A stretch of 64,000 nucleotides of DNA from Escherichia coli (GCF_041248615.1 NZ_CP158426.1); one strand, 5' to 3'. Shown: positions 27,001-36,000, counted from the stretch's first letter. Numbers are program-made.

Positions 27001-30000
27001 ATGAAAATGAGCGTGCTTATCGCAAACATCTCAATGCCGCCCCATACAAAGCATTCGCTGCTCGTGCAGCTGACATTATTGACAGGAAGAAGAAAATTAC
27101 CCTGGAGCCACAGTTTCTGGGCGACAAACACATCATACCGAATGAACGAACTATCAATAATCTGGTGATCGTCGAAGTAAAGCCTGAATTTCAGAGCGAA
27201 TTTAGAAACATCGTCCTTCCTGAAATGGTCGAGTCGCTCAAAGTAGAGAAAGGCGTGTTAGCCATGTATGCCGGTACAGATTCAGAGACTCCAAAACGCT
27301 GGTATTTCTATGAGATTTACGCCAGTGAGGAGGATTATCAACTGCACCGACAAACGCTGCACTTCCTGGATTACCTCAGGCAAACGGCGCATATGAGCGC
27401 CAGGAAGGACGCAATCCCGGTAAAACCGGTATTTCTTCGTAACAAAGGCGGAATCAAACAGGAGCCGCAACGTTGACCAGTAAGGATTAACATGAAAAGC
27501 GTACTTGCAGCAGCGGCTATGTCGCTTGTTATTTCTGATTTTGCCAATGCTGAGGAAACAAGAGGTAAAGCTATGATGAAAATAGAACCGTCAGCGATTT
27601 CGGAAGCTGATATTCGTTCCGTCTCACCGGCTCTCGCGCGCTTTGGTCGCGAAGCTATTACTGAAGATCTGTGGACACGCGACGCCCTCTCACCGAGGGA
27701 TCGTAGTGTGGTGACCGTCGCCATGCTGATTGCCCGCAACCAGCCTGCCGAGCTTAAGCACTATATTGACGTCGCTCTCGATAGCGGCGTGACGCCAGCG
27801 GAATTATCAGAAATCATTACCCATCTGGCGTTCTACTCAGGTTGGCCAAATGCAATGTCAGCCGTCAGCGTGACCAAAGCAGTATTTGAAACTCGTGGCG
27901 TCACGGCAGATGCACTTCCTGAAGCTTCTCCGGACCTGCTTCCTCTCAATCAGGAAGCAGAAAAGCAGCGTTCAGAGACAGTGGAAAAAAATGTTGGCCC
28001 AATATCTCCAGGCCTGGTTAAATTCACTGCTGATCCACTCTTCCTGGATCTCTGGCAAAGACCCGCGCTGAAACCCCGCGACAGAAGCCTGATTACGGTC
28101 AGCGCCTTAATCGCATCCGGACAGAGCGCGCAGATTGGCTATCACCTCAATAGAGCAATGGATAATGGACTTTCTGTTGAGGAAGCTGGTGAGATCGTTA
28201 CCCAGGCCGCCTTCTATGCTGGCTGGCCAAACGCATTTACCGCTGCTCCGGTTGTGGGAGAGGTGCTAAACAATCGATCATCGAGTAAAAGGTAACATTA
28301 CTGAACACTAAAACCTGACGCACATCACAAAATTAGAACGATCAGTTCATGAACCAACAGACGTGACATCGAGTGATTTATGGACAGCGTTTAACACAGT
28401 TATGAACCAAAACTGAGTTCATAACTGTGAGTTTGAATCGCCATTTGATTAATATCCATTTAAAACAGTTTGTTATACTGTTTCTGGTGCTGTCGTAAAT
28501 TATGTATATTCCTCAAACCCAGAATAGTTAAATGGAATTTGAGTGATGCGAAGCGATTTTCCAGTCGTCGTTATTACTTCAGGGTTCCAGAACATAAAGC
28601 CTCTCCTCTTTCATAATTGGCCTGTGCATACCGGATATAGGCTGGCAGGTTTGCCGTTTGCCGCATCTTCCCTGCGTTGAAGAGTCAGGCTGGCAAACCA
28701 CACACCCTCTTTCCATCAACACTTCAGACAGCTTGCGGGAATGAGTTCACTCCGGTATCAGAAATGGCTACGCCTCAATGAAGCCAGGCGACTGATGCTG
28801 AATGAACATTACGATGTCACCACTGCAGCCTATGCTGTCGGTTACGAAAGCTTATCCCATTTCAGTCGGGAATATTCGCGGATGTTTGGAGAGTCACCTA
28901 AGAGAGATATTACCAGGTTAAGAAAGTCTGTCGGTCAGCTTTAATAAACCCTGCACTTATCTGTTTAGAGCAATTCCGTGTTAGTTACACTAGGCAAACA
29001 TTAACCATAGCTAATGTTTTATAGCCATATAAGCCATTGGTCGCTCTTGACCTTTCCTGACACTTCCCTTGTTCGCAATAATATTCTGTTTAGTCGCTGT
29101 TTATAAATATCATGCATAATGAAATCGTCATGTTATTTAGCGACATAAAATGTTTTTGCAAATACTCTCTACAACAAGTGCTGCAATAAACTTGTTGTGA
29201 TTAGGTGTCCTTGTAATTTAAAGATATTATCGTTCTTCGTGAAATGTAATAACCCTGGAAACTATATTCTCAGGGCAACAACCAATTAAGAATGATTCTT
29301 GTTTTATAAGCAATAACAGAATGACTTAATTGTTAACTCTCTTTATTCAGCTACTTAAATATAAATTTTGGAGAATTATGAAACTCAAACATGTCGGTAT
29401 GATTGTCGTTTCTGTGTTGGCGATGTCGTCTGCTGCGGTAAGCGCAGCCGAGGGAGATGAATCAGTAACGACCACTGTTAATGGCGGTGTTATTCATTTT
29501 AAAGGTGAAGTGGTAAATGCCGCTTGTGCGATTGATTCAGAATCAATGAACCAAACGGTTGAGCTGGGTCAGGTCCGTTCTTCTCGTCTGGCTAAAGCGG
29601 GTGACCTCAGCTCCGCCGTTGGCTTCAATATCAAGCTGAATGATTGTGATACCAATGTTTCCAGTAATGCAGCTGTTGCATTCCTGGGTACTACTGTCAC
29701 CAGTAATGACGATACCTTAGCGCTGCAGAGTTCAGCGGCTGGCTCTGCCCAAAATGTCGGTATTCAAATTTTGGACCGTACGGGGGAGGTATTAATACTT
29801 GATGGTGCCACTTTTAGCGCTAAAACCGACTTGATTGATGGCACGAATATACTGCCATTCCAGGCTCGTTATATTGCTCTCGGGCAGTCAGTAGCTGGTA
29901 CTGCAAACGCTGATGCGACCTTCAAAGTTCAATATCTATAATTCAATCTTAAGATGGCTATACGTCATCTGAAATTGAAACAGGGTGTGTGTTGCATGGC

Positions 30001-33000: not shown

Positions 33001-36000
33001 ATAATAACCTGAATTATAGCGTTCAGGTCGGTAACACCCACGGAGGTAATACATCGTCTGGCACCAGTGGTTACAGTTCTCTTAATTATCGTGGAGCTTA
33101 CGGTAATACGAATGTCGGTTACAGTCGGAGTGGTGACAGCAGCCAGATTTATTACGGAATGAATGGTGGAATTATTGCTCATGCTGATGGCATCACCTTT
33201 GGACAGCCGCTGGGCGACACAATGGTTCTGGTTAAGGCTCCTGGCGCTGATAATGTCAAAATAGAGAACCAGACCGGAATTCATACCGACTGGCGTGGCT
33301 ATGCCATATTACCATTTGCGACAGAATATAGAGAAAATCGTGTCGCTCTTGACGCGAATTCCCTTGCAGATAATGTTGAACTGGATGAAACCGTTGTCGC
33401 TGTCATCCCAACTCACGGTGCTATTGCCAGAGCAACATTTAATGCACAAATCGGCGGGAAAGTATTAATGACGTTGAAGTACGGTAATAAGAGCGTTCCA
33501 TTCGGTGCAATTGTCACACATGGAGAGAATAAAAATGGCAGCATTGTCGCGGAAAACGGTCAGGTTTATCTGACTGGACTTCCACAGTCAGGGAAATTAC
33601 AGGTTTCATGGGGCAAAGATAAAAACTCAAACTGTATTGTCGAGTACAAGCTTCCTGAAGTTTCTCCTGGTACCTTACTGAACCAGCAGACAGCAATCTG
33701 TCGCTAAGGAACAATAGATTATGAAATACAATAACATTATTTTCCTCGGTTTATGTCTGGGGTTAACCACCTATTCTGCTTTATCTGCAGATAGCGTTAT
33801 TAAAATTAGCGGGCGCGTCCTCGATTATGGCTGCACAGTCTCATCGGATTCGCTTAATTTTACCGTAGATCTCCAAAAAAACAGTGCCAGACAATTTCCA
33901 ACGACCGGTAGCACAAGTCCAGCCGTCCCTTTTCAGATTACGTTAAGTGAATGCAGTAAAGGGACAACGGGGGTTCGGGTTGCATTTAACGGTATTGAGG
34001 ATGCAGAAAATAATACTCTGTTGAAACTGGATGAAGGAAGCAATACGGCCTCCGGTTTGGGTATAGAAATACTGGACGGAAATATGCGTCCGGTGAAATT
34101 GAATGACCTTCATGCCGGGATGCAGTGGATCCCACTGGTACCAGAACAGAACAATATTTTGCCTTACTCCGCTCGTCTGAAGTCAACTCAGAAGTCCGTC
34201 AATCCGGGACTGGTGAGGGCTTCGGCAACCTTTACCCTTGAATTTCAATAATCAGAGTCAGATATGAAAAGACTTCACAAGAGGTTCCTGTTAGCTACGT
34301 TTTGCGCGTTATTCACAGCAACTCTCCAGGCCGCCGATGTCACTATCACTGTTAATGGTCGGGTAGTCGCTAAACCCTGCACTATTCAAACCAAAGAAGC
34401 TAACGTTAATCTCGGGGATCTTTATACGCGCAATCTGCAACAACCTGGTTCTGCATCAGGCTGGCACAATATTACTTTGTCATTAACCGATTGTCCGGTT
34501 GAAACAAGTGCAGTGACGGCAATCGTGACAGGTTCAACTGACAATACGGGTTATTACAAAAATGAAGGTACTGCCGAAAATATTCAGATAGAGCTAAGGG
34601 ATGACCAGGATGCGACGTTAAAAAATGGCGATAGCAAAACGGTTATTGTTGATGAGATCACTCGTAATGCACAGTTTCCACTTAAGGCAAGAGCTATCAC
34701 GGTGAATGGAAACGCAAGCCAGGGAACGATCGAGGCGCTAATCAATGTGATCTACACCTGGCAATAACGTCGATTCGATTTTCTTAGCCTCCTTTTTAAA
34801 TCAATTTTTTAACCTTAGGATATATCATGGGTAAAACAATAAGTATGAAGCTTCTGTTCGGTATTTATCTTCTATTAATGGCAGGCAAAGTTTTTGCCTT
34901 CAGTTGTAATGTCGATGGCGGGTCAAGTATTGGAGCAGGTACAACCTCTGTTTATGTTAATCTCGACCCTGTAATACAACCGGGCCAGAATCTGGTTGTA
35001 GACTTGTCTCAGCATATAAGTTGCTGGAATGATTACGGCGGCTGGTACGACACTGATCATATAAACCTGGTACAAGGCTCAGCTTTCGCAGGCTCTCTAC
35101 AGTCATATAAAGGATCGCTGTACTGGAATAATGTGACCTACCCCTTCCCGTTGACGACAAATACTAATGTATTAGATATTGGTGATAAGACACCGATGCC
35201 ATTACCGTTAAAACTCTATATTACCCCAGTCGGTGCGGCCGGTGGAGTTGTCATAAAAGCCGGGGAAGTTATTGCCCGTATTCATATGTATAAAATTGCC
35301 ACGTTAGGAAGCGGAAATCCGCGTAATTTTACGTGGAATATTATTTCAAATAACAGTGTTGTTATGCCAACAGGCGGCTGCACCGTTGATAGTCGTAATG
35401 TCAACGTGAATCTCCCGGACTTTCCTGGAAGCGCAGAAATACCCCTTGGCGTATATTGCTCAAGTGAACAAAAGCTCTCATTTTATCTTTCGGGTGCTAC
35501 CACTGACAGTGCCAGACAAGTGTTTGCTAACACAGCACCAGATGCAACAAAAGCATCGGGAGTGGGTGTCTCTCTGATGCGTAATGGAAAAATACTGGCT
35601 ACGGGAGAAAACGTCTCCCTGGGGACAGTAAATAAAAGCAAAGTACCTCTGGGTTTAAGCGCAACCTATGGACAAACAGGAAACAAAGTTTCAGCCGGAA
35701 CCGTCCAGTCAGTCATTGGTGTCACTTTTATCTATGAATAATTGTGATTTTGACCTTAGTCTATGCGCTCCATTCGCGAAAATTGCGCGGATAATTATTT
35801 TGTGAAGGCTATTATCCTACACCTGTAAGAAAATCCGCGCACAATTGAAGCCAGAGTCTTATTTTTTATATTGAAAAACATGTTAATTTAAACACTATGA
35901 GAGATGATGCTTAACTTATCGTATTTATGCCATTCTATTATTTAACGATAATAGATTAAAAATAGAAAGAGAGTAGTCCCCTACTCTTATATATCCATAT

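Follow-up and report, generated by a model that had tools for sequence, protein, structure and literature searches.

A complete F9 (Fml) chaperone-usher fimbrial operon between dif/hipBA and ydeP in Escherichia coli, and the extent of its truncation in K-12

The present analysis deals with a 64,000-nucleotide stretch of Escherichia coli DNA (GCF_041248615.1, NZ_CP158426.1), hereafter called the window, and more precisely with six consecutive genes that occupy positions 29378-35741 of its plus strand. An original prediction had described these genes as an intact and tightly spaced chaperone-usher fimbrial operon, at a locus that is truncated in K-12, and had cautiously linked them to the F9/Fml fimbriae of uropathogenic strains. 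The genes, with coordinates counted from the first letter of the window, are the following:

29378-29941, plus strand: fmlA, the F9 major pilin (187 aa; Pfam Fimbrial, model positions 1-150 of 151, E-value 6e-31)
30304-31014, plus strand: periplasmic chaperone of the PapD/FimC type (236 aa; PapD_N and PapD_C)
31056-33707, plus strand: outer-membrane usher (883 aa; PapC_N 1-146 of 146, Usher 1-549 of 549, PapC_C 1-66 of 66)
33721-34251, plus strand: ydeS, FimF-like adaptor pilin (176 aa; Pfam Fimbrial; NCBIfam FimF, 239 bits)
34264-34767, plus strand: ydeR, FimG-like adaptor pilin (167 aa; Pfam Fimbrial; NCBIfam FimG, 257 bits)
34827-35741, plus strand: ydeQ, that is FmlH, the two-domain tip adhesin (304 aa; lectin domain at residues 25-184)

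All six are uninterrupted open reading frames (ORFs) devoid of internal stops. Scanned gene by gene, the Pfam models are matched end to end along the operon, with E-values of 8e-40 and 5e-12 for the PapD_N and PapD_C domains of the chaperone, respectively, and with the complete FimH_man-bind model (1-145 of 145) in the N-terminal part of the adhesin, followed by a C-terminal pilin domain. Besides, the residues R8 and K112, which anchor the subunits, are found in the mature chaperone. With a chaperone, a full-length usher, three pilins carrying the Fimbrial domain and a two-domain adhesin, the locus has the components that define the chaperone-usher class. The whole window is 100% identical to positions 2691672-2755671 of NZ_LT599825.1 (E. 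coli NRZ14408), a RefSeq record in which the same six coding sequences are annotated, all of them as intact, flanked downstream by ydeP, safA and ydeO and upstream by an AraC-type pseudogene described as "missing N-terminus". The evidence from the ORFs, from Pfam and from RefSeq therefore agrees on an intact six-gene operon at the predicted position. The described spacing holds for part of the operon: the last four intergenic gaps are indeed short (41, 13, 12 and 59 nt), whereas 353-362 nt separate the pilin gene from the chaperone gene, the start of the latter being ambiguous since an ATG at 30295 would give a protein of 239 aa. The GC content lies at 41-46% across the operon region and at 35% in the upstream segment 29000-29499.

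Almost beyond doubt, these six genes form a complete operon for the F9 (Fml) chaperone-usher pilus; it lies between dif/hipBA and ydeP and is paralogous to the type 1 (fim) operon. The identification as F9/Fml, left unconfirmed in the original prediction, is first carried by the adhesin: its residues 25-184 are identical, at 160 positions out of 160, to the crystallised lectin domain of FmlH (PDB 6AOW and ten related entries), and the match to PDB 5LNE is likewise perfect (158/158). The residues listed as contacting the ligand in FmlH, namely F1, D53, K132, N140, Y46 and R142 (PMC5866590), are all present in the galactoside pocket of the window adhesin. Second, all the proteins align without gaps and at equal length with those of the uropathogenic E. 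coli (UPEC) strain CFT073, on which F9 was originally characterised by experiment, with identities of 98% for the pilin, the chaperone and the usher, 99% for YdeS and YdeR, and 97% for the adhesin; the usher is also 98% identical, again without gaps, to its homologue in a B2 strain, and FmlA is 100% identical to its O157:H7 counterpart. Third, the placement between hipBA and ydeP agrees with the published description of F9 (PMC3966885), and the promoter matches as well, as detailed below. Locus, order of the six genes and gene lengths are all shared with the F9/Fml systems of CFT073 (c1931-c1936), of UTI89 (FmlH) and of O157:H7, the gene lengths being matched in CFT073, in a B2 blood isolate, in an O157:H7 strain and in a poultry isolate. 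The differences from CFT073 are allelic only; in the adhesin, four residues differ in the signal peptide and four in the pilin domain. No feature of the sequence speaks against this assignment.

Over the 480 nt that encode the lectin domain, 12 nucleotides distinguish the window from CFT073, with no amino-acid change. Such a pattern of 12 synonymous and no non-synonymous differences argues for purifying selection. In the same line, the adhesin is strongly conserved across lineages, and Wurpel et al. likewise reported that the adhesin varies very little (PMC3966885), in agreement with the conservation of this domain.

The non-coding elements assigned to the operon are listed below:

29091-29120, plus strand: f9/fml sigma-70 promoter (-35 hexamer TAGTCG at 29091-29096, 18-nt spacer, -10 hexamer CATAAT at 29115-29120)
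29127-29377, plus strand: AT-rich 5' leader of 251 nt, whose first base is the G equivalent to the transcription start of CFT073
29983-30011, plus strand: GC-rich stem-loop without a T-run, 42 nt past the fmlA stop, with a 10-bp stem
35772-35792, plus strand: terminator-like hairpin with a T-rich tail, 31 nt past the adhesin stop, found as a pattern match in a consensus scan

In CFT073, the promoter was mapped by 5' RACE, which gave a -35 hexamer TAGTCG, an 18-nt spacer, a -10 hexamer CATAAT and a +1 G at position -251, and H-NS binds the corresponding promoter and leader region (PMC3966885). Both direct reading and alignment show that the hexamers, the spacer and the position of +1 are identical base for base in the window. 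The promoter was located through this comparison with the published hexamers, a generic promoter scan having missed it because its -35 element is weak. The -35 hexamer is polymorphic, being TAGTCG in the window strain and in CFT073, and TAGTCA in K-12 and O157:H7.

The spacer between fmlA and the chaperone gene (29942-30303) is non-coding, with a GC content of 36.5%, and its 353-nt form folds at -88.2 kcal/mol (z = -4.2), better than all 100 shuffled versions. The stem-loop at 29983-30011 appears in both the minimum free energy and the centroid folds, and it might be a hairpin that stabilises the mRNA or attenuates transcription between the pilin and the assembly genes. The spacer also contains, at 30060-30077, a repeat of the ribosome-binding site and start of fmlA (TTTTGGAGCGGTATGAAA), which opens an ORF of just seven codons. 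Two other origins of this region were considered and rejected. A homologue of FimR2, the small RNA annotated after K-12 fimA, found no support, no similarity being visible by eye, so that the stem-loop would at most be an analogue of it; and a decayed fimI is not recognisable, stops occurring in all six frames and TBLASTN with FimI and FmlA giving nothing better than E = 1.3. An Rfam scan of positions 28300-36200 (E at most 1) yielded a single match, to OxyS, which is attributed to chance, its 22 bits falling far short of the gathering score (75). At the other end, the hairpin at 35772-35792 is the probable end of the operon on the basis of its sequence pattern, terminator-like sites as a class being no more frequent than chance (8 in total, for a mean of 6.6 in shuffled sequence).

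Concerning K-12, the original prediction had stated that only ydeQ, ydeR, ydeS and a C-terminal usher fragment, ydeT, persist, and this is precisely the content of the MG1655 locus, where ydeQ, ydeR, ydeS and a ydeT of 382 aa are followed by the yneL pseudogene, hipA and hipB. YdeT corresponds to usher residues 502-883 with 99% identity, and YdeQ, YdeR and YdeS are 98%, 99% and 99% identical to their window counterparts, respectively. The K-12 remnant is thus orthologous DNA to the window operon, minus one segment:

29200-32480: segment missing in K-12 (3,281 bp, with a 1-bp G ambiguity at the junction)

The end points follow from a BLASTN comparison of the K-12 junction with the window, in which one alignment ends at 29199 and the next restarts at 32481, with a single shared G. 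The loss covers 178 nt of the leader, both fmlA and the chaperone gene, and codons 1-475 of the usher; the promoter persists in K-12, as do the initial 73 nt of the leader, now fused to usher codon 476. K-12 consequently does not carry the same intact genes, and, deprived of the major pilin, the chaperone and the N-terminal half of the usher, it could not build a pilus from this locus alone, although its ydeT-ydeS-ydeR-ydeQ genes may still be transcribed from the H-NS-controlled f9 promoter.

The distribution of this truncation was evaluated with a 120-bp query spanning the K-12 junction (10022-10141 of the fetched K-12 locus, L002) against 5,426 complete genomes. The junction was matched in full in 1,382 of them, about a quarter, and the query splits in two in the rest; the simplest explanation for this pattern is a single deletion that was then inherited. 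By comparison, 3,536 of the 5,426 complete genomes contain the 7.8-kb locus over at least 80% of its length, a figure that is an upper bound on intact operons, since a count by coverage takes in copies disrupted by insertion sequences (IS) or point changes (for instance hits H10-H13 and H16). It is comparable with the 25 intact operons found among 42 by Wurpel et al. in 2014 (PMC3966885). Another form of disruption is seen in at least one lineage, that of NZ_CP018976.1 (Ecol_545, hit H20), which is 99.0% identical over its aligned part and matches positions 29949-36100 only; the match starts just past the fmlA stop, so that the promoter and the major pilin gene are removed.

How the operon would work in the window strain can be proposed on the model of the chaperone-usher pathway, which is well established, and of published work on F9: H-NS control, low-temperature expression, assembly and galactoside binding are known from CFT073, UTI89 and O157. 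Transcription would start at position 29127 from the sigma-70 promoter at 29091-29120, H-NS bound to the AT-rich promoter and leader would silence it at 37 °C, and a temperature of about 20 °C or the loss of hns would relieve the silencing. The stem-loop after fmlA could, speculatively, stabilise the fmlA message or attenuate read-through and thereby lead to an excess of pilin over the assembly proteins. The six products would be secreted to the periplasm, where the chaperone would cap the pilins by donor-strand complementation through R8 and K112, and the usher would then assemble the pilus through donor-strand exchange, FmlH forming the tip, followed by the FimG-like and FimF-like adaptors and by the FmlA rod. 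The transcript would end near the terminator-like hairpin at 35772-35792. As to the ligands, the tip adhesin would bind terminal galactosides, namely Gal(beta1-3)GalNAc (the TF antigen), GalNAc and Gal(beta1-3)GlcNAc.

Several published observations stand behind this proposal. H-NS repression and binding of F9, as well as its glycan specificity, were demonstrated in CFT073, whose F9 fimbriae bind Gal(beta1-3)GlcNAc glycans (PMC3966885), and expression of F9 in the wild type at 20 °C is reported in the same paper. In tissue of the kidney and of the inflamed bladder, FmlH recognises Gal(beta1-3)GalNAc and GalNAc; its binding to the TF and Tn antigens, a role in chronic urinary tract infection (UTI) in mice, an FmlH vaccine and galactoside inhibitors have been described, and an fmlH mutant shows a competitive defect in mouse UTI (PMC5866590). 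For O157, another study reports binding of F9 to plant xyloglucan (PMC7766294).

Two points call for restraint in reading these data. Even CFT073 shows hardly any F9 expression in vitro at 37 °C (PMC3966885), so that an intact sequence is no proof that the pilus is used; and the count of genomes at 80% coverage overestimates the number of intact operons because disrupted copies are included. The most probable of the alternatives is that the operon is intact but silent in the window strain, kept under lasting repression by H-NS and drifting towards a K-12-like decay. It would account for F9 being hardly detectable in wild-type CFT073 at 37 °C, strong expression requiring deletion of hns (PMC3966885), and for the repeated disruption of the locus, through the K-12-type deletion in 1,382 genomes, through IS insertions and through other deletions. 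However, a cryptic locus is difficult to reconcile with a lectin domain that has accumulated only synonymous differences from CFT073, with the conservation of the adhesin across lineages and with a promoter identical to the active one of CFT073, nor does it fit the wild-type expression at 20 °C and the competitive impairment of the fmlH mutant in mouse UTI mentioned above. Permanent silence is therefore considered unlikely, although it is the least unlikely of the alternatives to a working F9 operon.

The original prediction had also stated that a putative AraC regulator upstream of the operon is not intact. The element in question is the following:

28687-28944, plus strand: AraC-family C-terminal helix-turn-helix fragment, corresponding to the K-12 yneL pseudogene (ORF at 28741-28944; RefSeq "missing N-terminus")

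This fragment matches just positions 23-76 of the 80-position HTH_18 model, in-frame stop codons lie upstream of it, and the homologous K-12 yneL carries an additional 1-bp deletion. That the fragment is real and truncated is thus borne out; a role as the regulator of the operon is unsupported, since nothing makes the fragment its regulator. One could imagine that it descends from a dedicated fml activator whose truncation disabled the regulation of an otherwise intact operon, in view of its position 433 bp upstream on the same strand and of its recognisable HTH_18 motif. Against this, it is a truncated pseudogene in all four lineages inspected that carry it (the window strain, K-12, O157:H7 and MS1718), and a spread sample of the 4,332 genomes out of 5,426 in which the fragment was found contains no AraC-family regulator label, generic helix-turn-helix labels only being present, with lengths not shown. 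Moreover, CFT073 and the B2 isolate AH19B041 have complete operons but lack the fragment, and CFT073 expresses F9 all the same (PMC3966885). Wurpel et al. state that there is no evidence tying upstream regulators to the control of f9 (PMC3966885). Finally, nothing but variable DNA separates the fragment from dif, and it looks like debris of that region. An activator origin is, on these grounds, very improbable. The DNA just upstream of the fragment (28534-28740) is itself lineage-variable: with positions 28534-28960 as query, identity reaches about 81% to K-12-type, 89% to O157 and 94% to MS1718-type genomes, and the stretch 28640-28740 is barely alignable to K-12.

The last alternative, according to which the operon is type 1 itself or a second fim copy and hence mannose-binding, is suggested by automatic annotation, as three proteins score above the NCBIfam equivalog cut-offs (FimA 174 vs 140, FimF 239 vs 200, FimG 257 vs 220), the N-terminal domain of the adhesin is labelled "FimH, mannose binding" by Pfam and the first gene is named fimA in RefSeq ("type 1 fimbrial major subunit FimA"), but it is ruled out by sequence comparison and its probability is practically nil. 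The identities to the K-12 Fim proteins (FimA 70%, FimC 59%, FimD 58%, FimF 45%, FimG 58% and FimH 47%) are in a range of 45-70%, from which the operon is judged to be a fim paralogue and not a copy. The locus adjoins ydeP, away from the fim locus, and the chaperone and the usher score under the FimC and usher equivalog cut-offs. In the alignment with FimH, the residues Q133, N135 and D140 of the FimH mannose pocket stand opposite K132, A134 and G139 of the window adhesin, substitutions that fit the galactoside specificity of FmlH, and the lectin domain is identical to that of the galactoside-binding FmlH crystal structures.

The comparison with type 1 fimbriae (fimAICDFGH) also delineates what the two systems have in common. 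Both use the same assembly pathway and the same order of chaperone, usher, FimF-like, FimG-like and two-domain adhesin genes. Unlike type 1, F9 has no recombinases, no invertible promoter (fimS) and no fimI: no fimB or fimE recombinase gene is annotated near the operon, and an inverted-repeat search around the promoter gave just weak or short pairs, none of them convincing as a fimS-like switch. The F9 adhesin binds galactosides (PMC5866590, PMC3966885), mannose being the ligand of FimH, and F9 is governed by H-NS and temperature instead of a phase switch (PMC3966885).

Beyond the operon, the DNA that separates it from hipA contains an exact 28-bp dif site (GGTGCGCATAATGTATATTATGTTAAAT) at window positions 20811-20838. 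The same site was found in the five lineages fetched (L002, 10751-10778; L006, 8566-8593; L007, 8973-9000; L008, 3970-3997; L010, 15763-15790), in all of which it lies on the fml side of hipA or of an autotransporter gene. In each of these lineages, what varies upstream of fml begins directly past the XerD arm of dif. A variable 5' region was described by Wurpel et al., dif not being mentioned in their description (PMC3966885). In the window strain, the stretch from dif to the promoter is made up of the yneL fragment and of an island:

20839-28526: variable island of 7.7 kb, absent from K-12, starting right after dif

In CFT073, by comparison, a segment of 2.9 kb takes this place, and its genes are an SDR gene, a LysR fragment and an esterase gene. 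The island carries a divergent LysR regulator and eight genes whose products are mostly enzymes of the redox or hydrolase type (a glutamine amidotransferase-like protein, two aldo/keto reductases, an amidohydrolase, an NAD(P)H oxidoreductase, a quinol monooxygenase, a carboxymuconolactone decarboxylase-family protein and a hypothetical protein). Among the 5,426 genomes, 428 carry the island. Relative to MS1718, where dif runs directly into GGGATTTGAG, the island is a precise insertion; the empty-site form of the locus would read dif followed by GGAATTTGAG.

The island ends with GTTAAAT, which repeats the final 7 bp of dif, and a dif-like core, TTATGTATATT, lies at 28500-28510, 26 bp inside this end. 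This is the sole other match in the 64 kb to the dif core TNATGTATATT, for 0.18 expected by chance. Vibrio and Neisseria are known to harbour integrase-less elements mobilised by XerCD, called IMEX. In the same way, dif might have shaped the variable DNA that lies upstream of fml, the island, which carries no integrase gene, being an IMEX-like element, but this is a doubtful proposition, with a likelihood slightly below that of a permanently silent operon: the arms of the second dif-like site match dif poorly, the junctions of the island are equally well explained by an insertion or deletion at 7 bp of microhomology, and no second dif-like core was found at the far end of the upstream insert of CFT073 when it was searched for. 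If it were true, the region upstream of fml would be an insertion hot spot driven by Xer recombination.

The other flank of dif varies too. hipBA is absent in MS1718 (L007); in O157:H7 strain Wll001 (L008), hipA is N-terminally truncated and hipB is missing; and in CFT073 (L010), hipA is annotated as C-terminally truncated. Further upstream, at window positions 13514-18934, an intact gene for a 1,806-aa autotransporter of the ECSE_1600 family is found where K-12 has the yneO pseudogene, a gene whose copy is frameshifted in O157:H7 strain Wll001.

Turning to what the locus means, the operon, its distribution, its regulation, the structure of its adhesin and its truncation in K-12 are already known from the literature, and the feature is in this respect an ordinary one, whose scientific value is small since all its main traits have been published. 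The exact end points of the K-12 deletion, with the promoter kept, and the frequency of the junction (1,382 of 5,426) are nevertheless useful bookkeeping. The automatic names FimA, FimF and FimG are misleading, as readers relying on them would miss that the genes encode F9/Fml fimbriae and that the expected ligand is a galactoside, not mannose. Finally, the FmlH lectin domain encoded in the window is identical to the one used in the vaccine and galactoside-inhibitor work, and, judging from this identity, those reagents should apply to this isolate.

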